Assembly (NCBI GenBank): GCA_023132875.1
Contig: JAGLXN010000032.1
Coordinates: 1 to 43,237 of the forward strand
DNA length: 43,237 nucleotides
Direction of reading: 5' to 3'
From: Candidatus Parcubacteria bacterium
Lineage (GTDB): Bacteria > Patescibacteriota > Minisyncoccia > JAHIHE01 > JAGLIN01
Shown here: positions 1,433-37,140 of the stretch, in pieces
Numbering within the stretch: position 1 is the first letter of the stretch
Layout: every line of letters starts with the position of its first letter
Program-made: the position numbers and the translations under genes
Notes under the pieces: generated by a model
The model's input: only the letters and a program-made list of their open reading frames with translations
What the model was told of the DNA's origin: nothing
Databases searched by the model: none

Positions 1433-2020
1433 ATGGAATATTTAAAAGAAGCTAGGCAGTATTTATACGGCTTAAAGAAATATATCTTATTTTCTTCGTA
1501 TGTTTTTATTATTGCGGTTTTCTGCGGATATGTCATTGCGCAAAATTATCCGTCAGAAACACAAATGCTTATTGAAGAAATGAAATCAATGTTTCTGTTT
1601 GAAGAAGAAGTTACTTCTTTGCAGCTTTTTTTCTTTATTTTTGAAAATAACGTCAGCAAGCTTTTTGTAATATTACCGCTTGGGATCTTCGCGGGACTAA
1701 TTCCGCTTTTGTCTGTTTTTGCTAATGGACTAATTTTAGGTGTTTTTGCTCAAGTTGTGTCAGGAGAAATATCATGGATTTTTTTCTTTCTTGGAATCAT
1801 ACCTCATGGTATTATTGAGATTCCAGTTTTAATTATCTCTTCCGCAATTGGCATAAGAATTGGAAAAGTCGCAGTTTGGAGATTATTCAGCAGAAAAGAA
1901 AGTCTTAAAGAGGAATTCATAAAAGCTTTGAAATTTTTTGTTTTAATTCTTATCCCGTTATTGTTTGTTGCAGCATTGATCGAGGCTTTTCTGACAACTC
2001 TATTATTGGAGATGGTCTAA
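1433..2020 (+). CDS. SpoIIM-family (DUF95) integral membrane protein
   Basis: IFENN, NGLILG, IIPHGIIEIP and AALIEAF motifs; multiple TM helices. Confidence 0.85.
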   Translation: MEYLKEARQYLYGLKKYILFSSYVFIIAVFCGYVIAQNYPSETQMLIEEMKSMFLFEEEVTSLQLFFFIFENNVSKLFVILPLGIFAGLIPLLSVFANGLILGVFAQVVSGEISWIFFFLGIIPHGIIEIPVLIISSAIGIRIGKVAVWRLFSRKESLKEEFIKALKFFVLILIPLLFVAALIEAFLTTLLLEMV

Positions 2021-2049
2021 TTTATTTCATTTTATATTTGCAAATATTT

Positions 2050-2084
2050 TGTTTAAATGTTTAAATGCTTATATGTTAAAATGA
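2050..2084 (+). repeat. period-8 array (TGTTTAAA TGTTTAAA TGCTTATA TGTTAAAA TGA); putative extended -10 for tRNA-Ala
   Basis: Read directly; last TGnTAAAAT ends 6 nt before the tRNA 5' end. Confidence 0.6.
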
Positions 2085-2088
2085 TTCC

Positions 2089-2159
2089 GGGCTCATAGTA
2101 AAACGGTATTACACGGCATTCGCATTGCTGAGTTCTGGGTTCGATTCCCAGTGAGTCCA
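2089..2159 (+). tRNA. tRNA-Ala(CGC)
   Basis: Acceptor GGGCTCA/TGAGTCC with G3:U70, anticodon arm CGGCA-TTCGCAT-TGCTG, T-loop TTCGATT; no encoded CCA. Confidence 0.92.
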
Positions 2160-2160
2160 C

Positions 2161-2321
2161 AATTATATTCTTCACTCAAAATAGTGAGAGTTCTCAGCCC
2201 ATGGCTGACCCGCCACGGGCGGGGATTCTCGCCGGGTCCACCTTTACATTTTCATTATAATAATGAGGGTTCTCAGCCCATGGCTGACCCGCCACGGGCG
2301 GGGATTCCCAGTGAGTCCACA
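2161..2321 (+). repeat. two tandem ~80-bp units ending in tRNA 3' fragments with a 30-bp double-hairpin insert
   Basis: Identical 39-mer at 2190-2228 and 2269-2307; 2303-2321 equals tRNA end 2143-2161. Confidence 0.85.
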
Positions 2322-2428
2322 GAGTTTATTTTTTTCATAAAAAGAGTATAATAAATATAGCTTCTTTGGGTTGTAGTTTTTAGACAATAAAAATTAGGTA
2401 TTAAAGACACGAATGCAAAGCTCTTCTG

Positions 2429-2527
2429 GGTGACGGGCACCTCGAATATATTCAATAGGCTGAAAATTATGCTCTTTATTAAATATCTTGATATTAAAAG
2501 AACAAAATATAAGAGGTGCCCGTCACC
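2429..2527. repeat. 15-bp perfect inverted repeat pair (REPIN/MITE-like)
   Basis: GGTGACGGGCACCTC at 2429-2443 and GAGGTGCCCGTCACC at 2513-2527. Confidence 0.75.
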
Positions 2528-2605
2528 GTAGCGTATATTGAAATTCCGCACATTAAACTAAAATGTTCATACTTAAAGAATTTTATAACTTTTAATACTT
2601 TATCT

Positions 2606-3250
2606 ATGCCAGAAAAAAAACAAAGAGTAAAAAAAATTATAACTCTTTTAAGTAAAAAATATAAAAATCCCAAAACGGCTTTGAATTATAAAACTCCGCA
2701 TGAGCTTTTGGTCGCGACAATGCTTTCCGCACAATGCACAGACAAAAGGGTTAATGAAGTAACGAAAGATCTATTCAAAAAATATAAAAAGGTGAAAGAT
2801 TACGCGCAAGTTAGCGCTGAAGAATTTGAAAAAGATATAAGAACAACCGGATTTTTTAGAAACAAGGCAAAAAACATAGTTGAGTCTTCAAAAATAATAA
2901 TGGGAAAATTTCACTCAAAAATTCCAGATACTATGGAAAAATTGATTATGCTCCCAGGGGTCGCGAGAAAAACCGCTAATGTCGTCCTTTCGGAAGTATT
3001 TGGAAAAAATGATGGAATAGCAGTTGATACTCATGTCAGAAGGCTTTCGCAAAGACTTGGCTTATCTGAAAATTCAGATCCTGAAAAAATTGAAAAAGAT
3101 TTAATGGAAATTACAGATAAAAAAAACTGGAAGAAAGTTTCCAACCTTTTAATTTCACATGGCAGAACGATCTGCGCGGCTCGCAATCCAAAATGTAAAG
3201 CTTGTATTCTAAACAAAGATTGTCCATCGGCTTTTAGTTTTGAAAATTAA
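2606..3250 (+). CDS. nth: endonuclease III
   Basis: LSAQCTD, HhH LPGVARKTAN, AVDTHV, C-x6-C-x2-C-x5-C Fe-S motif; ATG 2606 preferred to the track start 2516, which lies in a repeat. Confidence 0.95.
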   Translation: MPEKKQRVKKIITLLSKKYKNPKTALNYKTPHELLVATMLSAQCTDKRVNEVTKDLFKKYKKVKDYAQVSAEEFEKDIRTTGFFRNKAKNIVESSKIIMGKFHSKIPDTMEKLIMLPGVARKTANVVLSEVFGKNDGIAVDTHVRRLSQRLGLSENSDPEKIEKDLMEITDKKNWKKVSNLLISHGRTICAARNPKCKACILNKDCPSAFSFEN

Positions 3251-3264
3251 CTTTTAATAAAAAA

Positions 3265-3801
3265 ATGCTTGAAACATATAGTCTAAACATTTTTAGATGC
3301 AAACTTTGTTCGGAAGTGATCTTTGCCGAACACAAATCATCTACTTGTCCTTTTTGCGGCGCGCATGACGATTATTTAGTCCGCGCTCAGGACTGGAAAG
3401 ACGAAAATGATATTAATAATCTTTCCAAAATTTCAAGAGAGAATCTTGAAAAAGCAATGGAATTAGAGCTTGAAAACGCAAAATTTTATAGATGCGCCAT
3501 GTCTTACGCGCAAGACGCGGAAAATAAATCAATTTTTCAAAATCTTGCAAAGATTGAAATGGAACATGCTTTCTTAATTTCAAAGGTCCTGAAAAAACCC
3601 AGATCAGACATAAGTATGCAGGATATTTGTTTTCGTCTTGATAATGAAAATGTAAAAAACTCGCTTGAACTTGAAGAAAAAACAAAAGAATTTTATGTGA
3701 AAGCTTATAACCAGGCAACGGAACCGCGAGTAAAAGAAATATTTTTCGGGTTGATAGAGGCAGAAGGAGATCATATAGAGTTGCTTAAGGAAAGAATGTA
3801 A
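3265..3801 (+). CDS. rubredoxin-like + ferritin-like (rubrerythrin-family) protein
   Basis: N-terminal CKLC...CPFCG; two ExxH motifs (EMEH, EGDH). Confidence 0.85.
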   Translation: MLETYSLNIFRCKLCSEVIFAEHKSSTCPFCGAHDDYLVRAQDWKDENDINNLSKISRENLEKAMELELENAKFYRCAMSYAQDAENKSIFQNLAKIEMEHAFLISKVLKKPRSDISMQDICFRLDNENVKNSLELEEKTKEFYVKAYNQATEPRVKEIFFGLIEAEGDHIELLKERM

Positions 3802-3858
3802 GATAAGGAGTTGGAATTGTAAATTTTAAAAAGAGCTTTTAGCTTTTTTTTTATATTT

Positions 3859-4033
3859 TTAGACTGTAGAAGAACACTTTTGTCATCTCGAAAGAGTGAT
3901 AACGACTAAGAGATCTATAAGCTAAACAAGTCTCACCTAAACCTTTCTTATTTCTGGCATAGTATAGTTCACAGATTTCTCACCCTATCGGGTTCGAAAT
4001 GACAGCTATAAAAAGTATTCTTCTATATTCTAA
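3859..4033. mobile_element. MITE-like element with TGTCAT...ATGACA core
   Basis: Imperfect terminal IRs TTAGAnTRTAGAAGAAYACTTTT; right part nearly identical to the reverse complement of 17176-17235. Confidence 0.7.
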
Positions 4034-4173
4034 TTTTATGTGAAGTTTTAAATTACGAAATGCTTAGAAATAAATTTTTATATAAAATACTGCCGTTAAA
4101 AAAGTTTAGACTTGTATTGCTCTTTATAAAAAACCTAAGAAGCTAAGAAGCTGCAATCTAAAAAGCTAGCTAG

Positions 4174-5631
4174 CTATTTCACCCAAAATTTCTTTTTATC
4201 TTTTAAATCTTCTTCTTCCTTTTTTTCTTTAATAATTTTTTCGCTTTTTTTAATTTCTTCTTCTGATAGTTTACTTAATTCTTCTACTCTCTTTTCAAGA
4301 TATTCTTTTGTATTTTTGTCTGGCTCTTCAATGACTTCAGATAAAAGAACTTTTAAGATTGCTCCGATTTTTGGACCTGGTTTTGTATTCAAAATTTTCA
4401 TAATATCCTGCCCATTCACTTTAAGCATCTTGGCTGATACGGGATCCTTGCTTACTTTTTCAATTAAATATTCAAGATGGCGCAATTTATACGGCTTTGC
4501 CTTAGGCACTCCGCTTCCAAGGCGATCAGCTATCCGAAGATCCATCAAGTCTTTCAGATTTTCTTTGCCAGTTCTCCTGATAAGCCTTCGAACGCCAGCT
4601 TCTGAAACTTCGTCAACATTATAATAAAACATGTGATTTTTAACAAGAAGCGACACTTTTTCAATCGTCTTATTTGAAAATTTTAGGCGAGTAAGTATTT
4701 TTCTCGCGAATTTTGCGCCTACAAGATCATGATTATAAAAAGTGCTATCAGGTCCAATCCCCGCTTTTGTCTGAGGTTTGGCGATATCATGAAAAAGCGC
4801 GGCCAAACGCACTTCAAGTTTTTTACTCGGACAGTGTTTTAAAGACAAAATCAAATGCTCGTAAATAGTATAGATATGATGGCGATTTTGGCTTACTCCA
4901 ATGCCCTTTTCAAGCTCAGGAACTATAAAACTTAATAATCCGGAAACGCGGAGAAATTCAATGCCTTCATACGCCCTGTCTGACAAAATTATTTTCTCAA
5001 ATTCGTCTCTAATTCTTTCTTGAGAAATAAATTTTAAAAGACTGTTGTTTTTTTGAATAGCCTTAAATGTATTTTTTTCAATTTCAAATCCAAGCTGCGA
5101 TGAAAAACGAATTGCCCGAAGCATTCTAAGAGCATCTTCGTTAAATCTCGCGCCAGGATCACCAACAGCTCTTATAATTTTACTCTTCAAATCCTCCCGC
5201 CCGCCGAATAAATCAATGATTTCATAATTCTTGATTCTTGATTCTTGATTCTTGATTCTTAATGCCATTGCATTCACTGTAAAATCCCGTCTTGCCAAAT
5301 CTTCTTCCAAGCTCGGTGTAAATTTGATCGCGTCCGGATGGCGCTTGTCGCTATAACCGACATCAATTCTATAAGTCGTGATTTCAACATTTTTTAAGCT
5401 TTCATCTTTCGCGTCTTTATTAATAACCGTAACCGTGCCGAATTTGTTATTATAAAAACTTTCCGGAAATACTTTCTGAATTTCCTCCGGTTTGGCATTT
5501 GTAGTTACATCCCAGTCTTTCGGCATTTTTTCAAGCAAAAAATCGCGCACAGGACCGCCCACAACATAAGCCTCAAATCCGCTTTTTTCAAGTTTTTCTA
5601 TAATAGATCGTATTTCTTTTGGTATATTCAT
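4174..5631 (-). CDS. cca: CCA tRNA nucleotidyltransferase with HD domain
   Basis: VGGPVRD, DWD, RRDFTVNAM, EDALRMLRA, ERIRDE, HDIAK motifs; CCA vs CC/A specificity not determinable here. Confidence 0.88.
   Translation of the reverse strand: MNIPKEIRSIIEKLEKSGFEAYVVGGPVRDFLLEKMPKDWDVTTNAKPEEIQKVFPESFYNNKFGTVTVINKDAKDESLKNVEITTYRIDVGYSDKRHPDAIKFTPSLEEDLARRDFTVNAMALRIKNQESRIKNYEIIDLFGGREDLKSKIIRAVGDPGARFNEDALRMLRAIRFSSQLGFEIEKNTFKAIQKNNSLLKFISQERIRDEFEKIILSDRAYEGIEFLRVSGLLSFIVPELEKGIGVSQNRHHIYTIYEHLILSLKHCPSKKLEVRLAALFHDIAKPQTKAGIGPDSTFYNHDLVGAKFARKILTRLKFSNKTIEKVSLLVKNHMFYYNVDEVSEAGVRRLIRRTGKENLKDLMDLRIADRLGSGVPKAKPYKLRHLEYLIEKVSKDPVSAKMLKVNGQDIMKILNTKPGPKIGAILKVLLSEVIEEPDKNTKEYLEKRVEELSKLSEEEIKKSEKIIKEKKEEEDLKDKKKFWVK
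5221..5262. repeat. in-frame heptamer array TTCATAA(TTCTTGA)4TTCTTAA inside cca
   Basis: Six 7-mers = 42 nt; peptide RIKNQESRIKNYE. Confidence 0.85.
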
Positions 5632-5787
5632 GATTCTAGTTTAACATAGATATAGCGTGTAACGCAAAACGTGTAACGTGTAACACAATTTTTTCTTTAT
5701 TAATTTTCTCTGAACCACAAAACAACACTCTTTGTCATTGACATTTCATAATTCATAATTCATAATTCATTTCTCTGAATACATAAG

Positions 5788-5817
5788 TTGACTTACTATA
5801 AAACATTCTGTTATATT
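5788..5817 (+). promoter_or_regulatory. sigma70-like promoter upstream of tRNA-Arg
   Basis: TTGACT-18 bp-TATATT with TG extension. Confidence 0.5.
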
Positions 5818-5851
5818 TAATAAGCAAAACAAACTTAGTATCATAATATCC

Positions 5852-5923
5852 GTCCTCGTAGTTCAACGGATAGAACAAGAGCCTCCTAAGCTCTAGATGC
5901 AGGTTCGATTCCTGCCGAGGACA
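5852..5923 (+). tRNA. tRNA-Arg(CCT)
   Basis: GTCCTCG/CGAGGAC acceptor, AGAGC-CTCCTAA-GCTCT anticodon arm, GCAGG-TTCGATT-CCTGC T arm. Confidence 0.95.
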
Positions 5924-5954
5924 CAGAATCATATTAAAATGTTAACATGATTAC

Positions 5955-6028
5955 GGGCCATTAGCTCAGTTGGCTAGAGCGCTTCCATGGCATGGAAGAG
6001 GTCAAGGGTTCAAGTCCCTTATGGTCCA
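5955..6028 (+). tRNA. tRNA-Ala(GGC)
   Basis: GGGCCAT/ATGGTCC with G3:U70, CTTCC-ATGGCAT-GGAAG anticodon arm, TTCAAGT T-loop. Confidence 0.95.
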
Positions 6029-6156
6029 CTAAAAATATAACCATTACTAACAAGGCAATATTTGTTATAATGAAAGCATTAATTTATGTTTGAATAATTT
6101 ATTTTTATAATGTGAAAAATATAAATAAATTTCAATAATTATTAACTTATTTTATT

Positions 6157-7116
6157 ATGCATATCAAAAAAGTCATTACAATCATAATTTTATTTTTTAT
6201 TTTCGCAGCCGTCTTAATATTTATGTTTAGAGATAAAATCTTTTCTAATGGCAGGATCGTAAATAACGAAACTAAACAGGAAGACTTATCTAAAAAAGAT
6301 CCTACACAAGATTATTTAATAGAAGTAAAAACGGATAAAACTATTTATAATCAAAATGAGCCTGTTAATATTTCCATAATGAATAAAGGTAAAAATGATG
6401 TTTGGCTCTTTTTTTTACCAAAACAATGCGAAAGAGAACTTTATTTTTCGGTTCAGAAATATGTTAAAGATGATTATTGGATGACGCTTTCAACGTGGTA
6501 TTCTTGCTTTTCTAGCGGAGTTGATTTTAATAGTATTGAAACAAAGAAAATAAATTCGCAAGAAGATATAGAAAGTTTTTGGGATAAGAAAATTCCTTTT
6601 GGCTATGATGAAGCTTATGCAGAATCAGGAATTTATAAAATTGTGCTCCACTACAGTAAAAATGAAATAACTGAAGATAATAGGGATGGGGAATCAAGTA
6701 TTCCGATAGATGTCTTCTCTAATGAATTTGAAATAAAACCATCTTCAGAAAATAGTTATGTTTCAGATCAACTTAAAATAGAACATGATATTATGAGAAA
6801 GTCTAGTTTGCGTCGTATAAAAAGCGCATTAGAAGCATATGCGAATAATAATGGCGGATATCCAATCAGTAACGAGATTTCTAAATTGAACAATGGCTCT
6901 TCTAAGATACGCAAAGAGCTTATGGGATATTTTGGATCAACAGATTTTCAAGATCCAAAATATCCTGAATTTTATTATGGCTATAAGTCGGATGGAACTT
7001 ATTTTGAACTTTCTGCCAGACTTGAAAATTTGAATGACGAAGAATGCGAGCTTGTAAAAAGCAATCTTTGTATTTATAAAATTGATTCAAAAGACGACAC
7101 AAGTAAAAGAGAATAA
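6157..7116 (+). CDS. membrane-anchored protein with Ig-like domain and C-terminal GspG/type IV pilin-like domain
   Basis: N-terminal TM; TDKTIY..NEPV; D..RKSSLRRIKSALEAY...GGYP...DP...YGY...FELSARLEN. Confidence 0.6.
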   Translation: MHIKKVITIIILFFIFAAVLIFMFRDKIFSNGRIVNNETKQEDLSKKDPTQDYLIEVKTDKTIYNQNEPVNISIMNKGKNDVWLFFLPKQCERELYFSVQKYVKDDYWMTLSTWYSCFSSGVDFNSIETKKINSQEDIESFWDKKIPFGYDEAYAESGIYKIVLHYSKNEITEDNRDGESSIPIDVFSNEFEIKPSSENSYVSDQLKIEHDIMRKSSLRRIKSALEAYANNNGGYPISNEISKLNNGSSKIRKELMGYFGSTDFQDPKYPEFYYGYKSDGTYFELSARLENLNDEECELVKSNLCIYKIDSKDDTSKRE

Positions 7117-7165
7117 AATAATAATAAACCAATCAATCTAAAATGCACGAAGTCTATCTCATTCT

Positions 7166-7203
7166 AAAACAAAAAAACCGTTTTTAAAAATGGTTTTTTG
7201 TTT
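7166..7203 (+). terminator. intrinsic terminator-like hairpin
   Basis: AAACAAAAAAACCGTTTTT/AAAAATGGTTTTTTGTTT after the 6157 ORF. Confidence 0.5.
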
Positions 7204-7210
7204 ATAATAC

Positions 7211-7290
7211 TGTCATGAGATTTAAATTTACAGACTAAAATCTGATCTCCAGATTTCTCTTTTGAAGTTCAGGTTTTAACCCGTATGACA
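7211..7290. repeat. degenerate TGTCAT...ATGACA element
   Basis: Same termini and internal AGATTTCTC as the copy at 3881-4004. Confidence 0.5.
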
Positions 7291-7379
7291 CCAAAACTTT
7301 ATTTGCCAATCAACTCTATTATATATACAATATAATAAAATGGGCATTAAAACAAATTTAATTTAAAAAGTATATTTTG

Positions 7380-7407
7380 CTGGTTCAGGCCAGAAACCTG
7401 AACCAAC
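7380..7407. repeat. REP-like palindrome CTGGTTCAGG-N-CCTGAACCAAC, copy 1
   Basis: Related copies at 7795-7823 and 37141-37169. Confidence 0.75.
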
Positions 7408-7450
7408 ACCAACGGTTTTAAATAAGAAGTTTATTTTTAAAATTCACATT

Positions 7451-7768
7451 ATGCTTCATTTAAAAGAACAACCAACGCTAAAAGATCTCCAAAAATATGT
7501 CAACGAGATGGAAAACGAACGTGGATTTACAGATGAGTCCATATTGCAAAAATGCCTTTTGCTTGGTGAGGAAATTGGCGAATTATTTAAAGCAATTCGC
7601 AAATCAGAGAACATAAAGGTTGATCGCAATTCTAAATTTAGTTCTGTAGACCACGAGTTATCTGATATATTAACCTATTTATGCGCAATTGCAAATCGTC
7701 TTGATATTGATTTAGAAAAAGCGTTTAGAGAAAAAGAGGAGTTGAATAAAAAGAGAGTTTGGGAATAA
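7451..7768 (+). CDS. MazG-like nucleotide pyrophosphohydrolase
   Basis: EEIGEL...ELSD acidic motif; DLEKAFREKE..NKKR.W. Confidence 0.85.
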   Translation: MLHLKEQPTLKDLQKYVNEMENERGFTDESILQKCLLLGEEIGELFKAIRKSENIKVDRNSKFSSVDHELSDILTYLCAIANRLDIDLEKAFREKEELNKKRVWE

Positions 7769-7794
7769 ATTTGTAACTCATTTCAGATTCCGTG

Positions 7795-7823
7795 CTGGTT
7801 CAGGTCTCCTGACTTAAACCAAC
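7795..7823. repeat. REP-like palindrome, copy 2
   Basis: CTGGTTCAGGTCTCCTGACTTAAACCAAC. Confidence 0.75.
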
Positions 7824-7925
7824 CACAATGGAGTGTTTTAAAACAGACAAAGTAATTAGTCAATAGACACAGACACTATCCTTCATCCAAAACAAAAAAC
7901 AAATTTTTAAAACCTAGAAAATAAA

Positions 7926-8315
7926 ATGAAAGTAAAATTACATCATTTTGCATATAATATCGCGCCAAACAGCTTGGAATTAGTTTTAGAACTTTTAGAA
8001 AAATTAGGATGCACGCTTGTTTACAGAGAAGAAAATGCGCGATGGTGTATGATACAACAAAAGCCAATTCCAATTAATATTCAAATGATTGAAACTAAAG
8101 ATAAACCGATTTCAATTGAAAAGAAAATTAATACTCATGTTGCCTTTTTATCAGATACTCCCAAAGAAGATATTGAAGAAATTAAACAATGGTCAGAAGA
8201 TAAGAGTATAAAATTTAGACAAGATGGCTGGTCTAATAAAGAATTATGGTTCGACTTACCCGATGTTTTCGTTAATTTTGTAATTGAAATAATACATACT
8301 TCAATAATTAAATAG
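7926..8315 (+). CDS. VOC/glyoxalase-like protein
   Basis: LHHFAY...HVAF...VIEI metal-ligand pattern. Confidence 0.65.
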   Translation: MKVKLHHFAYNIAPNSLELVLELLEKLGCTLVYREENARWCMIQQKPIPINIQMIETKDKPISIEKKINTHVAFLSDTPKEDIEEIKQWSEDKSIKFRQDGWSNKELWFDLPDVFVNFVIEIIHTSIIK

Positions 8316-8412
8316 TTTTCCGCAAAAACTGGTTTGTAGTCAAAACAAAAAACAAATTTTAATAATATAGCTTATCAAAAGATATTTAATAAAGAATAAA
8401 TATGACGATCAT

Positions 8413-8943
8413 ATGAAAGTATATTTTGTAAGACATGGTCAGACAAACTACAATGTTTTAGATTTATGTAATGATGATCCAACTAAAGATGCGCATCTTA
8501 CTGAATTGGGCAAACAACAGGCTAAAATTGTAGGTGAAAAAATTAAAGATACTAAACTGGATATAGCCATTGTATCTGAATTGCCAAGAACAAAAGAAAC
8601 TGCTTCAATAATTGCAAATAATCATACGATTGAATTTAAAATTGAGCCAAGAATTAATGACAGAAAAACAGGCTTTGATGATAAACCAGTATCCGATTTT
8701 CTTGAAGCATTAAAACCTGATATTTTTAATTTAAAACTTAATAATGGAGAATCTTTTCAAGAAGAAAAGAAAAGAGCTTTTTCTTTCTTAGAAGAATTAA
8801 AAAATTATAATTTGACCAATGTTCTTGTTGTCTCACATAGTGAAATTTTACAAATAATAAATGGATATTTTAATAATTTTTCTGATCAAGAAATGTGGGA
8901 TACGAAAATAGACAATTGTCAGGTTTTAGAAGTCAATTTCTAA
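8413..8943 (+). CDS. histidine phosphatase (PGM-like) family protein
   Basis: VRHGQT, LTELG, S.L.R..ETA, GES, LVVSH. Confidence 0.9.
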   Translation: MKVYFVRHGQTNYNVLDLCNDDPTKDAHLTELGKQQAKIVGEKIKDTKLDIAIVSELPRTKETASIIANNHTIEFKIEPRINDRKTGFDDKPVSDFLEALKPDIFNLKLNNGESFQEEKKRAFSFLEELKNYNLTNVLVVSHSEILQIINGYFNNFSDQEMWDTKIDNCQVLEVNF

Positions 8944-8974
8944 AAAACAATATATAAAAAACTTAGAGAATATC

Positions 8975-9253
8975 ATGAAAATTAATATAAAAAAAAGTGA
9001 TTTAAAAGAAAATTTGTATAGCTTTCTGCGAAAGTGTGGGTATGCTCCTTTTCATGATAGTTATATAAAAGTTCTCTCTGGATCGGGATATCCCAGATTC
9101 CATCTTTATATAAACGAAAACGATAATCAATATATTTTAAATCTTCACCTTGACCAAAAACGACCCACCTACGGAAAGGAAACAGCGCATAGCGGAGAAT
9201 ATGATGGAAAAGTTGTGGAAGAAGAGAGAGAAAGAATTGAAGATTTAGTTTAA
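8975..9253 (+). CDS. conserved hypothetical protein
   Basis: YPRFHLY...LHLDQKRP...HSGEYDG; recalled as CPR-type, function unknown. Confidence 0.6.
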   Translation: MKINIKKSDLKENLYSFLRKCGYAPFHDSYIKVLSGSGYPRFHLYINENDNQYILNLHLDQKRPTYGKETAHSGEYDGKVVEEERERIEDLV

Positions 9254-9321
9254 CACACCATCTAGCCCCTCTCAAGAGGGGATTTGTATAAAAAATTTGG
9301 AGAAAATTAATAGACCTATCT

Positions 9322-9373
9322 ATGTTAAAATGTTAGTATGTTAGTATGCTAAAATGTTAATATGCTAAAATGA
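9322..9373 (+). repeat. period-8 array (TGTTAAAA/TGTTAGTA/TGCTAAAA)x6
   Basis: Read directly; last TAAAAT ends 8 nt before ATG 9380. Confidence 0.8.
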
Positions 9374-9379
9374 TATCCA

Positions 9380-10516
9380 ATGAAAATCGCGCTTGTTCAT
9401 GATTATCTGGTCCAATATGGAGGAGCAGAAAGAGTTTTGGAAGCATTTACGGAAATTTTTCCTAAGGCTCCGATTTATACCATGGTTTATGACGAAAAAC
9501 TTATGAACAGAGCTTTCTCAGACAGGAAAATATATACTTCATTCCTCCAAAAAATTCCGTTTATAGGACCTAACCACAGGCTTTTTCCGCTTCTTATGCC
9601 AATGGCAATAGAACAATTTGACCTTTCAAAATACGATGTTGTGCTTTCAGACTCAAACAGTTATGCCAAAGGCGCCATAACAATGCCGAAAACTTTGCAC
9701 GTAACATACTGCCACACGCCAATGAGATACGCATGGGACGACTGCCATAAATATCTCCGTGAATTCAAATATTCAAATATCACAAAAAAACTTGTTCCTT
9801 TCGCAATGAATTATATAAGACTGTGGGATAAAATTTCGGCAGACAGGCCTGATATATATATAGCTAATTCAAATTTTGTTTCCTTTAGAATAAAAAAATA
9901 TTATAATAAAGACACTTTTGTTATTAATCCTCCCGTAAGCACTGAAAAGTTTTATATCTCTGAAAAAATTGAAGATTACTATCTAATGATAGGCCGAGCA
10001 CTTCCATATAAGCGTTTTGACATAGTTATAGAAGCTTTCAATAAACTTGACCTTCCCCTGAAAATTATTGGCAAAGGCCCTGAAATGGACAAGTTGAAAA
10101 AAAACGCGAAAGCAAATATAGAATTTCTTGGATATCTGGACGATGAGAAAATTAGCCGCTATTATTCCAAATGCAAAGCCTTTCTTTTCCCTCCAGAAGA
10201 AGATTTTGGCATAACTCCGCTTGAAGCAATGGCCTCCGGAAGGCCCGTTATCGCGTTCCGCGGAGGAGGAGCATTGGAATCTGTAGTAGAAGATAAAACT
10301 GGATTATTTTTTGACGAGCAAACTCCTGAATCAATAGTAGAAACTGTAAAAAGTTTTAATTCTAATAAATTTAATTCTCAGGAAATAAGAAATCACGCTT
10401 TGAAATTTGACAAGGAAATATTTAAAGAAAAGATAAGAGAGTTTGTTGAAGAAAAATATGATAAATTAAACATTAAAAAACAATATGGAACTAAGAGAGT
10501 ATTTAAAAATAATTAA
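9380..10516 (+). CDS. GT4 glycosyltransferase (WbaZ-like)
   Basis: HDYL..GGAERV, YCHTPMRY, EDFGITPLEAMASG. Confidence 0.92.
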   Translation: MKIALVHDYLVQYGGAERVLEAFTEIFPKAPIYTMVYDEKLMNRAFSDRKIYTSFLQKIPFIGPNHRLFPLLMPMAIEQFDLSKYDVVLSDSNSYAKGAITMPKTLHVTYCHTPMRYAWDDCHKYLREFKYSNITKKLVPFAMNYIRLWDKISADRPDIYIANSNFVSFRIKKYYNKDTFVINPPVSTEKFYISEKIEDYYLMIGRALPYKRFDIVIEAFNKLDLPLKIIGKGPEMDKLKKNAKANIEFLGYLDDEKISRYYSKCKAFLFPPEEDFGITPLEAMASGRPVIAFRGGGALESVVEDKTGLFFDEQTPESIVETVKSFNSNKFNSQEIRNHALKFDKEIFKEKIREFVEEKYDKLNIKKQYGTKRVFKNN

Positions 10517-11090
10517 AAGCAATTTTAAACTAATTATAATTATTAGCATCATCACGGCTGTGTCTGCTTTTCTATTTTCCACTATGAAACCGGTTGTGTA
10601 TGAGATATCAATATCTCTTGCAATAAATAAAAATAAAACGCAAATTACAGACGATTTTAAATATGATGGATATTATGCCTTGCAAGCAAGCGAGATGTTA
10701 GCTAATACTATTGTGGAGTGGACGAAAAGTCCGACTATAGTAGATGCGATTTATCAAAAAGCCGGAGTCAATCAGAATTTTAAAAACATCAAAAGCTATA
10801 CTAAAAAATTCACGGCAAAAAAAATGTCCTCCCAGCATGTTGAAATAAAATTCAAAACGAACACAAGAGAAAATGCGGAAAAAATTTCATCGGCGACTGT
10901 GAAAATAATAAGCGATAAAATAAAAACTCTGGAAAAAGACAGTGAAAAAGAAATAGCTTTCTCAGTAAGCAGTGAAAATCCCATAATAATTGAAAATAAA
11001 CCAGATGCGTTTTTAAATTTGTTTATTGGACTTGTTTCAGGATTTATTCTCGGCATTTTTATTGTTTTTGGAAGAAGATATTTTACATAA
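10485..11090 (+). CDS. Wzz/CapA(YveK)-like polysaccharide co-polymerase
   Basis: MELREYLKII, TM1, P.Y, C-terminal P...N..IG..SG..LG TM. Confidence 0.75.
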   Translation: MELREYLKIIKSNFKLIIIISIITAVSAFLFSTMKPVVYEISISLAINKNKTQITDDFKYDGYYALQASEMLANTIVEWTKSPTIVDAIYQKAGVNQNFKNIKSYTKKFTAKKMSSQHVEIKFKTNTRENAEKISSATVKIISDKIKTLEKDSEKEIAFSVSSENPIIIENKPDAFLNLFIGLVSGFILGIFIVFGRRYFT

Positions 11091-11096
11091 TTATAT

Positions 11097-11177
11097 AAAC
11101 ATTTTAACATTTTAACATTTTAACATTTTAACATTTTCAAAGTGTTAGTATGTTAGTATGCTAAAATGTTAAAATGA
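11097..11177. repeat. inverted period-8 array pair (ACATTTTA)4 ... TGTTAGTA/TGCTAAAA
   Basis: Read directly; the right arm supplies ATG 11174. Confidence 0.85.
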
Positions 11178-12322
11178 TCATCGGTATTGATATCCGCATG
11201 CTTGCTCGCGGAACAAAATCAGGCATTGAAGAATATACGACCAATCTTCTTTCAAATATGATTAGCTTGGACAATAATATTGAATACAAGCTTTTTTATA
11301 ATGGATACAAAAAAACTAAATTGGAATATGATTTCTTAAAACTGCCCAATGTCCAATTAAAAGAATTTAAAATCCCAAACAGGCTGCTTGATGCTTCATT
11401 TCAATTTCTAAATTATCCAAAAATTGACAAAATGCTTGAAAAAATTGATCTTTTCTTTTCTCCTCATATATTTTCATCATCTGTGTCAAAAAAATGCAAA
11501 ACTATAACAACTTTTCACGATTTGAGTTTTGAGAATTATCCTGAATTTTATTCATTCGGTAAAAATTACTGGCACTTTTTAATGAATCCCAGAAAACAGG
11601 CTCAAAAAGCAGATAAAATAATCGCTGTTTCCAAGTCAACAAAAGATGATTTAGTTAAAATTTACGGAATAGAGCCTGAAAAAATAAAAGTTATTTATTC
11701 GGGAATCATATTGGAATCTGGAATCTGGAATCTGGAATCTGAAGTTTTGAAAGTTAAAAGAAAGTATAATCTGCCTGACCATTATATTTTATATTTAGGA
11801 ACGCTGGAACCGCGAAAAAATATTATTGGATTAATTAAAGCGTTTGAAATTTTAAATACTAAATACCAAATACTAAATACTAAATACCAATTAGTTATTG
11901 CCGGTTCAAAAGGATGGCTTTATGAAGATATTTTTAAAGCAGTAAAAGACTCTCCGGTAAAAAATGATATAATTTTTACAGGATTTATTGATGATAAGGA
12001 CAAACCTGCTTTATATAGTTTAGCTGATTTATTTGTTTATCCGTCTTTTTATGAAGGCTTCGGCTTTCCCCCGCTTGAAGCAATGTCCGTTGGAACGCCT
12101 GTTATCACTTCAAATTTTTCATCTTTGCCGGAAGCGGTAGGAGACGCGGCTATTATGGTCAATCCTTATAATCTGGATGAGCTTGCAAAAACAATGGGAA
12201 TGGCTTTGTCTGACAAAAAATTAATGGATATTTTAATTGAAAGAGGATATGAAAGAGTGAAAAATTTTAGCTGGAAAAAATGCGCGGAAGAAACACTTGA
12301 AACTTTAAAAATGGCTATTTAA
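11174..12322 (+). CDS. GT4 glycosyltransferase (MtfB/WbpY-like) with two internal heptamer arrays
   Basis: [28 protein letters not shown]. Confidence 0.92.
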
Positions 12323-29456: not shown

Positions 29457-29522
29457 TTGGAATTATGAATTATGAATTATGAATTAAGTATAAAAATATT
29501 CCTGATTCCTGATTCATAATTC
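29457..29522. repeat. inverted heptamer array pair (TGAATTA)n ... (TTCCTGA)2TTCATAA
   Basis: Read directly; fills the intergenic gap. Confidence 0.8.
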
Positions 29523-32749: not shown

Positions 32750-34093
32750 CTAAAAAAACTTTAAAACACCGTCTTCAATTATTCTTTTTGATAATTGCCC
32801 GCTTGAGGTAATAAAAATAATCTGAGACAACACCACTACAATAAACACTAATGTATAAAGAATTTTCTTATCTTCATTGTCCAGTTTTATCTTTTCCGCA
32901 ATTAATTCAAAAATTCCATACAGTCCAACAGCGGAAATAATATTTAATACAACAAAAGCAGGTGACATAAATCTAATATCATGATTTTTACTTATCAGAG
33001 TAACCATGACAAAAAATAGAACTATATATAAACTTATAATATTAATGATTTTTTTAGGAAGCGAATCAAGCACATGCCTATATTCTTTTTTAAAATTAAT
33101 AATAAAATAGGCAAATAACGACATAGAAGATGCCTGTGCCATATATCCTATTATCACAAACGCAAAAGACTTTAAATAGTCAAATAAGACTCTATGTGCA
33201 TAATTACTGACTTCGTAGCTTTTTTCAATAACATGTTCCGATTTAAAAACTAAACTATAAACCTCTTGCGAATTTGTAATTATGGTCGGCAAAAATACTA
33301 TGCTTATAACAATAAAAATCAAAATCCATGATAAATAGTCTTTCAAGATAAGTTTTATCTTTTTTTTATCAATTGGCCATGCGTAAAAAACAAAAATCAA
33401 TAAATAAAAAGGTAAAATAAAAAACGCTGATAATTTAGAAAGTACAGCCCAAGCACCAAACACTGCGGATAAATATAAATATTTTTTGCTTCCAAGCTTG
33501 TTTATATATATAAGAATTGTCAAAAAACTCAGAGTCATAAAAATATTTAGCATTTTGTCGCTTGGAGTATTCCAATAAGCAAGAAATACGTTTGTTGTCA
33601 AAAATAAAAGAGCGAAACTTGATATTACTTTATTAAACCCCAATTTTCTTATTAGATAATAAAATGCTATAAAAAAAGCCACTGTTAACAATATTAACGG
33701 TGCATTAAAAGCAAAACTTATCGTTTCATATGCCATATAAACGGCTTGATTATTATCATTAATCGCGTGATTAAAATCAAGGCCTTGGGCTTCTTTCTCG
33801 GCAATTCTCCTCATAACATCATTAAAATCAAAATCTATAAACTTCATCATAAAACCGGTAAACCAATATACCATTATCCCCGGTTGGGCTGATTGAATGA
33901 GTCCTGAAAAATCAAAATTTACAATCTTGTCCCAAAAAATACTTGCTCTATAATGCCAAAGCATTTCATCAAGACTGGGGAAAGTAAAGAAATTATTTAA
34001 TTTCATAATAGCAGTCACGACAAATCCAGAAAATATAATTACCATAACACTAATAAATTCTTCAAGTTTTCGATAATTTGATTTAAAATCCAT
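32750..34093 (-). CDS. GT-C (PMT-like) membrane glycosyltransferase
   Basis: LDEMLW, FDFSGLIQSAQPGIMV, DK, LSK, RF; paralog of 29531. Confidence 0.75.
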   Translation of the reverse strand: MDFKSNYRKLEEFISVMVIIFSGFVVTAIMKLNNFFTFPSLDEMLWHYRASIFWDKIVNFDFSGLIQSAQPGIMVYWFTGFMMKFIDFDFNDVMRRIAEKEAQGLDFNHAINDNNQAVYMAYETISFAFNAPLILLTVAFFIAFYYLIRKLGFNKVISSFALLFLTTNVFLAYWNTPSDKMLNIFMTLSFLTILIYINKLGSKKYLYLSAVFGAWAVLSKLSAFFILPFYLLIFVFYAWPIDKKKIKLILKDYLSWILIFIVISIVFLPTIITNSQEVYSLVFKSEHVIEKSYEVSNYAHRVLFDYLKSFAFVIIGYMAQASSMSLFAYFIINFKKEYRHVLDSLPKKIINIISLYIVLFFVMVTLISKNHDIRFMSPAFVVLNIISAVGLYGIFELIAEKIKLDNEDKKILYTLVFIVVVLSQIIFITSSGQLSKRIIEDGVLKFF

Positions 34094-34188
34094 ACTAACA
34101 TATTAACATTTTAACATACTAATATTTTAACACATTTAGACATCTGAAGTGTTTGTTAAAATGTTAATATGTTAGTATGTTAAAATGA
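34091..34188. repeat. inverted period-8 array pair between the GT-C start and the tRNA-Leu 3' end
   Basis: CATACTAA CATATTAA CATTTTAA ... TGTTAAAA TGTTAATA TGTTAGTA TGTTAAAA TGA. Confidence 0.85.
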
Positions 34189-34193
34189 CTCTG

Positions 34194-34273
34194 TGCAGGC
34201 GGTGGGAGTCGAACCCACACTCCGAAGAACACGGTCCTAAGCCGTGCGCGTATGCCAATTCCGCCACGCCTGC
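34194..34273 (-). tRNA. tRNA-Leu(TAG)
   Basis: GCAGGCG/CGCCTGC acceptor, CACGG-CTTAGGA-CCGTG anticodon arm, variable arm, TTCGACT T-loop. Confidence 0.95.
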
Positions 34274-34581
34274 GTATTACGAATTAAGAATTATGAATAA
34301 ATTAGATGCTGATAATTCATGATTTATGATTCTTCTGTATATACTACAAAAGTATAAATCAACTATCACAAAAAATCAAGAGCACAACAAATCATTTTAA
34401 CATATAAACATATAAACATTTTAACATAATTTAGAAAAGTCTAAAAAACTAATAAATTTCTATTCTATAATCTATATTTTGCCTTAAATCCCGGATTCCT
34501 GCCAGAATTTATTTCAGTACTGAGATGACAAAAACTATGTTTTTTAGAGGTTCCTTAATACTAAATACAGTATACTGTATA

Positions 34582-35532
34582 CTATTTATTATTTTTTGAA
34601 TGAAACTTTTTGTGAATATCTTTCAGATGACGATTTGTTATGTGAGTATATATCTGGGTTGTTGTTATGCTTGAATGCCCAAGCATTGATTGAACAGAAC
34701 GAATATCGGCTCCATTCATCAGCAAGTCCGTAGCAAAACTGTGGCGCAGAGTATGCGGAGTTACTTTTTTTATAATTCCGGCTTTTATGGCATATTTTTT
34801 GACAATTCTTTGAATGCTTCTGGGAGTTAGCCGCAGAGAGCAAACATTTTTGCTACTTTTGGTTTTTTCATTATTATTGACTTTAGCTGGTTTTTTTATA
34901 TTAACAAACAAAGCCGAGTCAATATCTTTTCTTTTTTTGATATAATTTATTATAGCATTTTTTGCTGAATCAGAAATAAAAACAAGGCGTATTTTCCCTC
35001 CTTTTCCCCGAATTGAAAATTCACCGCTTTTAAGATTGATACTGTCCCTGTCAAGACCAGACAATTCTGAAACACGAAGTCCTGTTGAAAAAAGCAGTTC
35101 CAAAATCGCCCTGTCACGCAAATCAGAAATTTTATTTCCTTTTACCGCAAGAATCAATCTCCGCACTTCTTCTAATTCTAAAAACTCAACCTCTCTTTCT
35201 TCGCTCTTGCCAAGCTCTACTTTCTCGCTTGCTAATGTTTTAATGTCTTGCTTCGCCAAATATTTCAAAAACCCCCGCAGAGCGATCACATAATAATCCT
35301 GCGTTGCTTTTTTTAAATTTCTGCCTTTATCATCCTTATACCTATTAAGATATAATCTAAATTTTCTCACTAAATCGCTTGTTATATCTTCCGGATCTCT
35401 TACCATCGCCCAATCCAAAAACCGATCCAGATAATGATCATAATTTCTAATTGTAAGCTGAGATCTGTTCTTTTCAATTTCCAGATACTCAAGAAATTCA
35501 GATTTCAGATTTTTTATTTCATCTATTGACAT
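34582..35532 (-). CDS. XerC/XerD-like tyrosine recombinase
   Basis: SAM-like N-domain; TGLRVSEL, GKGGK.R, HTLRHSFAT, LGHS, TTQIY. Confidence 0.92.
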   Translation of the reverse strand: MSIDEIKNLKSEFLEYLEIEKNRSQLTIRNYDHYLDRFLDWAMVRDPEDITSDLVRKFRLYLNRYKDDKGRNLKKATQDYYVIALRGFLKYLAKQDIKTLASEKVELGKSEEREVEFLELEEVRRLILAVKGNKISDLRDRAILELLFSTGLRVSELSGLDRDSINLKSGEFSIRGKGGKIRLVFISDSAKNAIINYIKKRKDIDSALFVNIKKPAKVNNNEKTKSSKNVCSLRLTPRSIQRIVKKYAIKAGIIKKVTPHTLRHSFATDLLMNGADIRSVQSMLGHSSITTTQIYTHITNRHLKDIHKKFHSKNNK

Positions 35533-35974
35533 ATTTTAGTTATTAGGTTAGTATTTTATTGCCGTTCTATTCATCCCCTCAGTGCTCAATACAAGCGCTA
35601 GAACGGTCTTGAGAGTCTCCTTCTACTTAAAATTAGGCATAGAAGCATAGACTCTCTCGTATTCATCTTTTCAAGTATTTAAGCCTTGTTTTAAGGTTTT
35701 TTATTTTGACAACTTTAACAATAGAGCAATGAGACAATAGAACAATATAATCTCATTTTACGACATAAAGCAAAACTTGTCTATTTGACTTTTTTGTGCT
35801 ATTATATCTTAAAGAATTCTTGAAAAATAACAACTTTGTCATTTCCATAAATGTTAGATGATTCAATAACAGAATAATTAAAAATTTAGTCATTAGGATT
35901 TATTTATAAAATTACAAAATTTAAAAATTAAAAATTTTCTATACAGCAATATAATTAACATAATAACCAAAAAG

Positions 35975-36295
35975 ATGATAAAAAAAGATAAAAAAAGCAA
36001 GATAATGAAAACTTATGGAGCGCATAAAGAAGATACCGGATCTTCAGAGGTGCAGATCGCGATCCTTACAGAGAGAATAAAAGAGCTCACGGAACATTTA
36101 AAAACAAATAAAAAAGATAATCATTCAAGAAGAGGACTTTTACAAATGGTAGCTAAAAGGAAGAAACTCCTAAAAGACATTCAAGACCGCGATGAAGAAA
36201 GATTTGCTAAAATTGTAAAATCATTAAAATTAAAAGCGGCTAAAAGCTTATCAGTTAAAGACAAAGAAAATGATAAAGAAGACAAAAAAAAGTAG
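35975..36295 (+). CDS. rpsO: 30S ribosomal protein S15 with charged C-terminal tail
   Basis: DTGSSEVQIAILT, HL..NKKDNHSRRGLL. Confidence 0.95.
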   Translation: MIKKDKKSKIMKTYGAHKEDTGSSEVQIAILTERIKELTEHLKTNKKDNHSRRGLLQMVAKRKKLLKDIQDRDEERFAKIVKSLKLKAAKSLSVKDKENDKEDKKK

Positions 36296-36821
36296 CAGTG
36301 AGCTTTCGTTTGAACGCAAAAGCCTCAAGCACAAAGATCAAAGAATTGGCGTTTTTGTTGATGCCCAAAATATGTATCATAGCGCCAGAAATCTCTATAA
36401 AGCAAGAGTAAATTTTAAAGAAGTACTGAGCGTTGCCGTATCTGGAAGAATTTTAATAAGGGCAATAACTTATGTAATAAGAACCGAAAGCGGGGAAGAA
36501 AAATCATTTTTTGAAGCAATGGAAAAACTTGGATTTGAAATCAAAGAAAAGGATCTTCAAATATTCGCCGGCGGGCAAAAAAAAGCGGATTGGGATGTGG
36601 GACTTGCCGTTGACGCGATAAAACTGGCAGATAAGCTTGATGTAGTCGTTATCGTATCAGGAGACGGAGACTATGAACCTTTAGTTGAATATTTAAAAAT
36701 AAACAAAGGATGCCGGGTAGAAACTGTCGCTTTTGGAGAAAGCGCTTCAGCTAAACTCATAGAAGTAGCCGACGAATTTACGGATTTAAGCAAGGATAAA
36801 AAAAGGTTTTTGATAAAATAA
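36270..36821 (+). CDS. NYN domain (LabA/DUF88) protein
   Basis: FVDAQN, KADWDVGLAVD, SGDGDY. Confidence 0.9.
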   Translation: MIKKTKKSSSELSFERKSLKHKDQRIGVFVDAQNMYHSARNLYKARVNFKEVLSVAVSGRILIRAITYVIRTESGEEKSFFEAMEKLGFEIKEKDLQIFAGGQKKADWDVGLAVDAIKLADKLDVVVIVSGDGDYEPLVEYLKINKGCRVETVAFGESASAKLIEVADEFTDLSKDKKRFLIK

Positions 36822-36825
36822 ATAT

Positions 36826-36906
36826 CATACTAATATATCAACATTTTAACATACTAACATTCTTAAATACTTGTTAAAATGTTAGTATGTTAGTATGTTA
36901 AAATGA
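36826..36906. repeat. inverted period-8 array pair
   Basis: CATACTAA...CATTTTAA CATACTAA / TGTTAAAA TGTTAGTA TGTTAGTA TGTTAAAA TGA. Confidence 0.8.
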
Positions 36907-37079: not shown

Positions 37080-37140
37080 CTTTTTAGGTTGTAGCCCTGC
37101 CTGCCGGCAGGCAGGTTTTTAGCTTCTTAGAACTTTTTTC

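Follow-up and report, generated by a model that had tools for sequence, protein, structure and literature searches.

The 43,237-nt contig of a Candidatus Parcubacteria bacterium analyzed here (GenBank JAGLXN010000032.1, positions 1 to 43,237; hereafter the window) carries short tandem arrays of an 8-bp unit, TGTTAnnA, in which each unit together with the T that follows it spells an extended -10 promoter box. We call these arrays arms, and we followed them through the host genome (G000; 1.13 Mb, 33% G+C, 93 contigs), a member of the Patescibacteria or candidate phyla radiation (CPR). By sequence comparison, the arms are a dispersed repeat family (family A) of one Patescibacteria order that recurs in other CPR lineages, and the arms that abut the start of a gene appear to lie exactly where a promoter must be for the RNA to begin at the first base of that gene. 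We give even chances to the view that these start-adjacent arms are active promoters producing leaderless or near-leaderless RNAs. No published description of such arrays was found in the literature searched, which largely leaves subscription journals aside.

Arms were collected from the whole genome with the regular expression (TG[TC]T[AT]NNA) in at least three repeats, which itself fixes TG, T and A at unit positions 1, 2, 4 and 8. This yielded 86 arms, most of them with four units (67), the others with three (10), five (5) or six (4). An earlier sequence-only reading of the window had taken the unit for a self-overlapping extended -10 motif, and this is borne out: the unit and the next T give TGnTAnnAT, that is, T-15, G-14, n, T-12, A-11, n, n, A-8 and T-7. 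Because this motif begins and ends with T, a period of 8 is its tightest possible packing. Across 347 units, TG one base before the -10 hexamer (-15/-14) is present in all 347, as the regular expression demands; position 3 (-13) is T in 339, position 5 (-11) is A in 265 and T in 82, and variation is concentrated at positions 6-7, i.e. -10 and -9. Most arms continue after the last unit with TGA(T/A)T.

Extended -10 promoters read by sigma-70 (TGnTATAAT) require no -35 box and start RNA about 7 nt downstream. The arms share with them the TG at -15/-14, T-12, A-11, A-8 and T-7 and the lack of a -35 box, and their distance to the first base of the gene matches the usual one from a -10 box to the RNA start; they differ in that several copies of the box, usually four, follow one another head to tail with period 8, at 86 sites, some of which face 3' ends. 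The diagnostic bases T-12, A-11 and T-7 are present, with A-11 in the unit that stands in register with the gene in 24 of 26 arms, as against 16 of 24 outermost units of arms at gene ends (p = 0.035). A -35/-10 consensus scan of the window left the arms unflagged, as expected of boxes without a -35 element.

Forty of the 86 arms form 20 outward-facing (-,+) pairs, in agreement with the inverted pairs noted earlier, and neither inward-facing nor same-direction pairs were found within 150 nt among the 86. The remaining 46 arms have no family-A partner of at least three units within 150 nt, a few having weak partner remnants. Partners are not mirror copies of each other when their variable positions are compared, and the spacers between them range from 9 to 106 nt; the arm rather than the pair is thus the basic element. 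Four-unit arms are nearly all distinct in sequence, the commonest combination at the variable positions occurring four times among 67. A general period-8 detector reported 268 arrays in this genome and 18 in a block-shuffled version of it, and 232 of the 268 lie outside called genes, i.e. in about 17.5% of the genome.

The evidence for a promoter role begins with the register. Twenty-nine arms abut a gene start (d of at most 12 between the arm and the first base of the gene), and the genes concerned are 22 open reading frames (ORFs), six tRNAs and the tmRNA. In these arms the last hexamer, or the next-to-last one if the final unit provides the ATG, ends 7 nt (range 6-10) before the first base. 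The arrangement by which leaderless genes are recognized, a -10 box 6-8 nt before the ATG and no Shine-Dalgarno (SD) sequence, is found at d = -1 (8 arms), 6 (3), 7 (9) and 8 (2), and the other start-adjacent arms stand at d = 9 (3) and 10 (1) or are outliers (3). The classes d = -1 and d = 7 both put the end of a hexamer 7 positions before the first base. The six tRNAs and the tmRNA have d = 6-8. Since a stable RNA has no ATG to create such a spacing, the caveat raised earlier, namely that a 6-nt spacing follows automatically from period 8 when an array ends in ATG, leaves these seven genes and the ORFs at d = 6-8 unexplained. By eye, the genes behind start-adjacent arms in G000 include some that resemble rplO, atpD, ftsA, ruvB and ftsE.

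For 24 start-adjacent arms both neighbors are called, and 18 of these spacers, three of the five divergent ones included, are free of any other -35/-10-like site; in one of the divergent spacers (C33 28252-28692) the arm occupies the 40 nt preceding the ATG. In the leaderless mRNAs of Actinobacteria and Deinococcus, the -10 box keeps a constant spacing to the start codon, a subject with which a study by Cortes et al. in 2013 is reportedly connected. The arms resemble them in the hexamer that ends 7 nt before the ATG, in the use of ATG as start codon and in the lack of an SD sequence, and differ in that the box comes as an array and is predicted from sequence.

Within the window, period-8 arrays were recovered from the letters themselves, by Tandem Repeats Finder and by the regular expression, at every position where the sequence-only reading had placed them. 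The Tandem Repeats Finder rows are 2050-2083, 9322-9372, 11098-11137 (5.0 copies, 100% matches), 34091-34136, 34154-34187, 34399-34428, 36826-36871 and 36879-36900; the arms and their neighbors are listed in Table 1. The hexamer spacings reported earlier, 6 nt before ATG 11174, ATG 36903 and the minus-strand ATG 34093 and 8 nt before ATG 9380, were reproduced, and the hexamers concerned at ATG 36903 and ATG 34093 are the next-to-last ones. The consensus scan listed no -35/-10-like site on the plus strand between 9281 and 9380, and for the arm at 9323 the RNA start is predicted at, or 1-2 nt before, ATG 9380.

Table 1. Arms of family A in the window and the features beside them (positions are those of the window)
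Feature	Position	Strand	Details
Four-unit arm	2050..2081	+	Hexamer TAAAAT (2077-2082) ends 7 nt before tRNA-Ala(cgc) +1 at 2089; outermost unit TGTTAAAA alone has A at -11, other three TGTTTAAA, TGTTTAAA, TGCTTATA
tRNA-Ala(cgc), gene behind the 2050 arm	2089..2160	+	ARAGORN; Rfam tRNA 61.7 bits
Terminator-like hairpin	9266..9281	+	CCCCTCTCAAGAGGGG then ATTTGTAT; upstream of the 9323 arm
Six-unit arm	9323..9370	+	Last hexamer 9366-9371 ends 9 positions before A of ATG 9380
Group 1 / family 4 glycosyltransferase gene	9380..10516	+	Pfam PF00534, E = 1.1e-29
Wzz-like gene	10485..11090		Stop codon 11088-11090
Five-unit arm, end-type	11094..11133	-	Faces the stop of the Wzz-like gene at d = 3, antisense into that gene; minus-strand units TGTTAAAA x4, then TGTTTATA
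Spacer between outward-facing arms	11134..11142		9 nt
Four-unit arm	11143..11174	+	Units TGTTAGTA TGTTAGTA TGCTAAAA TGTTAAAA; final A = A of ATG 11174; next-to-last hexamer TAAAAT (11162-11167) ends 7 positions before that A
Family 4 glycosyltransferase gene, start codon inside the arm	11174..12322	+	Pfam PF00534, E = 1.2e-37
Five-unit arm, one unit degenerate (TATTAGTA)	34093..34132	-	Strict regular expression 34093-34116, two inner units by eye; final A = A of minus-strand ATG 34093, start of a 447-aa gene
Four-unit arm	34154..34185	+	Faces the 3' end of tRNA-Leu(tag) at d = 7, antisense to the tRNA
tRNA-Leu(tag)	34193..34273	-	tRNA gene prediction and Rfam
Canonical promoter of tRNA-Leu(tag)	34351..34379	-	TTGATT-17 nt-TATACT; conserved in relatives
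Four-unit arm, facing a start from further off	34395..34426	-	15 nt upstream of the canonical -35 box of tRNA-Leu
Degenerate four-unit arm	36828..36859	-	TGTTAGTA TGTTAAAA TGTTGATA TATTAGTA; by eye and Tandem Repeats Finder; faces the stop codon (36819-36821) of an NYN-domain gene (Pfam NYN)
Four-unit arm	36872..36903	+	Final A = A of ATG 36903

The general signals at gene starts in this genome point in the same direction. The earlier remark that these genes have no obvious SD sequence extends to the genome as a whole: between -18 and -4, GGAG or GAGG is found upstream of 56 of 713 genes and in 52 of 756 in-gene controls, so that no SD enrichment exists, and no G peak was found upstream of gene starts in G000. 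This fits a published report that no more than 48% of Parcubacteria have a detected anti-SD motif (PMC9297842). In 105 of 737 genes, a TAnnnT ends 7 nt ahead of the ATG, as against 19-72 at other offsets, and array genes account for just 17 of the 105. The peak is seen in genes with an upstream gap of at least 40 nt (75/550) and in divergent genes (20/121), is absent at gaps below 40 nt (11/143), and has no comparable antisense counterpart at gene ends. In-frame stop codons were considered as its source and ruled out, given this dependence on the gap, its presence in divergent genes and a peak of TAA out of frame too. The longer motif TGnTAnnnT, scored in 710 non-array genes, has nine and four matches at offsets 7 and 8, zero to three each at offsets 9-26 and then a broad zone at 27-70, a two-zone spread of the kind expected if some of the genes are leaderless. 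The TAnnnT peak in non-array genes suggests that G000 has a sizeable leaderless class. Before tRNAs in general, no such -10-like signal was found, TAnnnT at offsets 6-7 being limited to the family-A cases.

The placement before tRNAs recalls Nanoarchaeum equitans, for which leaderless tRNAs and the absence of RNase P are reported (PMC10100707). In both organisms, a promoter element at a fixed distance fits a start at the mature 5' end of the tRNA (here six tRNAs and the tmRNA). They differ in that N. equitans is an archaeon, whereas the genome studied here is bacterial, has a -10 box of the sigma-70 type, a candidate RNase P RNA and other tRNAs with leaders. This candidate (C39:8180-8658 of G000) covers the whole model at 52.4 bits (cut-off 100; E = 1.3e-15); it measures 479 nt against 367 model positions, which probably reflects insertions or a divergent form. 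We rejected the idea that tRNAs must be leaderless here for want of RNase P, given the candidate and the leaders that other tRNAs, in G000 and in its relatives, receive from canonical promoters. A scan of the window at Rfam gathering thresholds returned four tRNAs and nothing else, and no small-subunit rRNA was found in the G000 assembly.

Family A was then compared across 41 genomes with a 26-base three-unit pattern whose variable positions were left free. The pattern has 72 matches in G000 and is present in 17 of the 41 genomes, namely G000, 13 of 23 genomes from the same family and 3 of 8 from the order's other families, with 0 of 9 from the rest of the class; the reversed pattern, used as a control, has no match in any of them. 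The distribution is uneven even at close range, two genomes of one genus having 0 and 39 matches. In a public search of one genome each of about 185,000 species, exact (TGTTAAAA)x3 returned 67 stretches, of which, by our count, 43 carry Patescibacteria-type labels (Moraniibacteriota, Paceibacterota, Nealsonbacteria, Saccharibacteria-labelled, Doudnabacteria, Falkowbacteria and Minisyncoccales), 19 are labelled otherwise and 5 have no label. An open ATG at d = -1, 6, 7 or 10 stands on the outer side of 25 of 66 such perfect three-unit arms and on the inner side of 2 of 66, and 15 of the 66 look like arms at gene ends. Several of the adjacent N-termini resemble, by eye, EF-Tu, S20, L6, L20 and L11.

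Across genera with 55-88% protein identity, arms are often conserved at orthologous sites. Of 26 tRNA-Ala(cgc) loci compared by eye, those of six genomes (G000, G005, G006, G007, G011 and G016) have an arm at 6-7 nt, with the length of the spacer kept and its sequence variable. Five genomes instead have, by eye, a canonical TATAAT 15-16 nt upstream; two have period-7 arrays, and in three the tRNA lies within about 15 nt of an upstream stop codon. Among the orthologues of the glycosyltransferase gene at 9380, arms with a 9-nt spacing occur in G000, G007, G011 and G002, a two-unit remnant in G017 and no arm at the remaining loci (15 of 20). Orthologous sites differ in unit number, from 2 to 4 before tRNA-Ala and from 2 to 6 before the glycosyltransferase gene; of the earlier idea of an element tunable by unit number, it is this variation that is confirmed. 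In the CPR record L152, an orthologue of the protein that starts at 11174 likewise has its start at an arm with d = -1, the arm at 34395 recurs in G014 (locus L077), and the arm at 34154 recurs in G006, G007 and G011, with a decayed copy in G004. At the place of the G000 arm pair after tRNA-Leu, G019 shows, by eye, a terminator-like hairpin followed by a promoter-like site.

In G006 (C43, locus L007), the stretch from tRNA-Leu to the 447-aa gene is, by eye, near-identical to that of G000 in its trailer, left arm and spacer, with proteins about 64% identical, and its right arm has about 130 nt inserted within it.

From the anatomy, register, conservation and genome-wide context of the arms, we infer the promoter activity, start site and slippage that enter the following account. 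A search for RNA sequencing runs, made for positions 2000-11999 of the window, found none. Each arm would sit at the edge of an intergenic spacer and point toward the neighboring gene. The housekeeping, sigma-70-type RNA polymerase would melt the box that is in register, with no need of a -35 box, and RNA would start at the start codon (for a tRNA or tmRNA, at the mature 5' end) or 1-2 nt ahead of it. In a genome that makes no use of SD sequences, an RNA start at the start codon would give leaderless mRNAs. The upstream units would be spare, overlapping -10 boxes, and their number would drift, probably by slippage. Arms that face gene ends, and arms that lie upstream of ordinary promoters, would be copies of the same repeat and not the promoter of the gene that they face.

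A considerable set of observations weighs against this account, or narrows it. The main one is that the preference of the arms for gene starts is not significant, which argues against a promoter of the downstream gene as the role of the whole family. The genome-wide scan for enrichment at gene starts, proposed earlier as a check, gave 49 arms that face starts and 34 that face ends; 29 abut starts and 29 abut ends (23 ORFs, five tRNAs and the tmRNA), the latter pointing antisense into the gene, 20 face a start and 5 an end from further off, and 3 have no called neighbor. The neighbor map behind these counts is our own ORF map, made without a gene finder, with the tRNAs and the tmRNA added. Since ends are approached just as closely as starts, at d = 3 (8 arms), 4 (3), 6 (3), 7 (5), 8 (2) and a few other distances (6-9 at tRNA 3' ends), a tight distance to the border is not specific to starts. 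The arm at 34154, for which the earlier reading had already noted the antisense direction into the 3' end of tRNA-Leu, belongs here. The 20 arms that face starts from further off are not needed as promoters, because ordinary promoters follow them: TTGAC lies within 40 nt downstream of 13 of the 86 arms, counted among these 20, and about six more have, by our reading, a canonical -35/-10 promoter (e.g. 34379-34351).

The unit and the general signals raise doubts of the same kind. Position -13 is T in 98% of the units and the critical A at -11 is replaced by T in 24%, a conservation profile that differs from what sigma-70 recognition alone would lead one to expect. A at -11 is not significantly more frequent in the register unit (24/26) than in the other units of the same arms (64/81; p = 0.15), nor is a competent outermost hexamer more frequent in start arms (23/29) than in end arms (18/29; p = 0.25). 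In the d = -1 class, the 7-nt register follows from period 8, and to that extent the earlier caveat is valid. Before the glycosyltransferase gene of G007, the outermost unit reads TTTTAAAAC, a decayed form. Part of the TAnnnT peak may be an mRNA or translation signal, because a TAA-rich motif at -13, -12 and -7 overlaps the -10 peak of the non-array genes and some genes with a match at offset 7 also have, by eye, a canonical promoter further upstream. Additionally, period-7 families (GTTAnnn, ATTCnnn, CGTTnnn, ATACTnn) flank other tRNAs in the same manner without consistently spelling a -10 box. We regard the proposal that the arrays are tandem extended -10 promoters for leaderless genes as partly supported: the 7-nt register at the 29 start-adjacent arms, the lack of SD enrichment and the -10 peak in non-array genes speak for it, and the equal number of arms at gene ends speaks against it as an account of the whole family.

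Apart from promoters, the arms may be selfish or neutral, fast-evolving repeat DNA, one of a CPR class of 7-8-bp arrays that fill spacers up to the limits set by selection, with the -10 spelling incidental; genes beside arms would then be transcribed from elsewhere and translated without SD sequences like all others. We consider this possible, though on the unlikely side. Many families with different units share the architecture and flank tRNAs on both sides (268 period-8 arrays, and 524 period-7 arrays as against 122 in the shuffled genome); family A abuts ends as often as starts, its distribution is patchy, as in the genus with 0 and 39 matches, and different genera have different array families at one orthologous site. 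Arrays also occur within transcribed sequence, downstream of a conserved canonical promoter: the promoter of tRNA-Leu(tag) implies a leader of about 70 nt, which holds a period-7 array. Neutral decay would not, however, leave the core positions intact while positions 6-7 vary freely in nearly unique arms, nor does it account for arms kept at orthologous sites across genera with proteins 55-88% identical. The orientation is strict, with no inward pairs and with starts on the outer side of public arms far more often than on the inner (25/66 and 2/66), the register coincides with the independent -10 peak of non-array genes, and relatives have canonical promoters at the equivalent sites.

A sister family bears on the same question. 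The period-8 arrays (TGTTAAAT)n, of which 20 arms were found, also spell an extended -10 box, yet they form inward-facing palindromic elements with G+C-richer centers, 60-400 nt from genes (C52:3260-3283, C67:15520-15543 and C25:13430-13453 are examples). Spelling a -10 box is thus not sufficient, because this family does so without the placement of family A, and family A is distinguished by its strict outward orientation and its register.

Alternatively, the arms could be operator arrays for an oligomerizing DNA-binding protein, e.g. of the ribbon-helix-helix type, that marks or insulates gene borders as a roadblock, repressor or activator; we think this improbable. Ribbon-helix-helix proteins such as omega (heptads), MetJ (8-bp metboxes) and ParG bind tandem 7-8-bp sub-sites. 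Their operators are similar to the arms in having such sub-sites in direct or inverted order in 2-10 copies; the difference lies in the 86 sites at gene borders as against a few operators. A fixed core with 2-3 free positions, the strong preference for four units (67/86), the conservation of -13, which sigma-70 recognition does not need, and the symmetry of the arms at both ends of genes are all in keeping with an operator. So is the scarcity of terminators at arm-bearing gene ends: a terminator-like site lies in the spacer at 1 of 27 gene ends with a family-A arm and at 122 of 647 other ends (p = 0.043). On the other side, distant CPR lineages share the unit (43 of the 67 public stretches, in several candidate phyla), for which RNA polymerase as a universal reader accounts more easily than a lineage-specific factor, and an operator has no reason to keep an exact 7-nt register to the first transcribed base.

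The scarcity of terminators hints that arms stand in the places of terminators, and replacement of the terminator by the arm at the gene end is one possibility. Joined to the promoter reading, it would make the arms a two-way punctuation of genes, in which start arms launch leaderless mRNAs and tRNAs or tmRNA with mature 5' ends, and end arms hold the polymerase or drive convergent transcription in place of a terminator. We regard this broader scheme as about as improbable as an operator array. In the 3' flanks of tRNAs, 37 of which were examined, a terminator was found in 9 and an array in 10, and both in none.

A role at the level of RNA, in which paired arms fold into AU-rich hairpins in read-through transcripts and act as terminators, processing sites or stabilizers, seems very doubtful to us. 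The predicted folding energies of the 20 outward pairs lie between -17 and -41 kcal/mol, a search of G000 gave no Rho RNA-binding domain, and both the mutual exclusion of terminators and arrays behind tRNAs and the depletion of terminators at arm-bearing gene ends would suit such a role. Nevertheless, 46 of the 86 arms lack a family-A partner of at least three units within 150 nt, the variable positions are not mirrored between partners, and spacers reach 106 nt. A hairpin is indifferent to the orientation of the units, yet family A has no inward pairs. No strand asymmetry of fold energy was found in the G-U test (sense -30.7 and antisense -30.4 kcal/mol, n = 45, p = 0.79). The search for intrinsic terminators gave no site in 33900-37100, which includes the pairs 34093/34154 and 36828/36872, and in 9200-11300 just the hairpin at 9266-9281, outside the arms, which themselves show no G+C-rich stem followed directly by a U tract.

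A mobile element, which had been offered earlier as a possibility, is not supported, since partners are not mirrored, spacers vary from 9 to 106 nt, four-unit arms are nearly all different and arms are often conserved at orthologous sites; a miniature inverted-repeat or other transposable element likewise finds no support, since the arms show neither terminal inverted repeats that copy each other nor near-identical copies across the genome, with unmirrored partners, 46 of 86 arms lacking a family-A partner of at least three units and the commonest four-unit sequence found 4 times in 67. Repetitive extragenic palindromes and the bacterial interspersed mosaic elements built from them (REP/BIME), as well as Correia elements (CREE), are small dispersed intergenic repeats, and Correia elements are said to carry outward promoters. 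Like these, the arms are high-copy, intergenic and often found as inverted pairs at gene ends; unlike these, they consist of periodic 8-mers in place of a single palindrome, with partners unmirrored and each arm a unit of its own. TIGR arrays, as described in PMC12045711, occur in parasitic bacteria and phages and consist of two alternating repeats of 8-12 nt with 9-nt spacers in 5-15 units, beside Tas genes with a Nop domain. The arms share with that description tandem short repeats with variable positions, and identity was rejected on repeat architecture, the arms being built of one 8-nt unit in which 2-3 bases vary, with about four units per arm, at 86 gene borders.

The CPR make up a large share of bacterial diversity, and their transcription and translation initiation are almost unmapped; for Nanosynbacter lyticus, a table in PMC12641261 lists 188 transcription start sites. 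If the start-adjacent arms are active, they would offer a testable answer to the question of how genes are expressed without SD sequences, namely by promoters that start RNA at the start codon, and they would be promoters built from a repeat of drifting copy number. They would also provide a bacterial case of tRNAs transcribed from the mature 5' end. In practical terms, the motif and its 7-nt register could sharpen the calling of gene starts and promoters in CPR genomes.

Several smaller observations were made along the way. The ATG provided by the arm at 36872 opens an ORF of 58 codons (36903-37079; MNNMFKKLKEK...) with one hydrophobic stretch, a candidate gene. Between tRNA-Arg(cct) and tRNA-Ala(ggc), the spacer of 30 nt at 5925-5954 looks, by eye, like a pair of one-unit arms, with AGAATCA, one inverted unit, TGTTAACA and TGATTAC in this order and a hexamer TAACAT that ends 7 nt before the 5' end of tRNA-Ala. 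Read from the A of each unit, an arm gives AUG UUA AAA UGU UAA (or ...UAG), a mini-ORF of four codons that stops 1 nt short of the AUG two units further on. Upstream of many partnerless arms, at 10-40 nt, REP-like hairpins (ATTCTGAA...TTCAGAATGACA, GGTTCCACAG...CTATGGAACC) were noticed by eye, for example at C9:89070-89118 and C78:34060-34103. The six-unit arm at C10:4003-4050 is followed within 10 nt by TGTGGATAA, which we take to be DnaA-box-like. Two perfect period-7 arrays, TGGAATC x4.3 (11712-11741) and TAAATAC x5 (11853-11887), lie in frame within the glycosyltransferase gene 11174-12322, and similar ones occur in the window at 5227-5260, 5745-5770 and 29460-29486. Finally, ARAGORN predicted two tRNA-like genes clustered with tRNA-Val, at C20:8251-8349 and 8371-8444, whose anticodons it left undetermined ('aacc' and 'ta').

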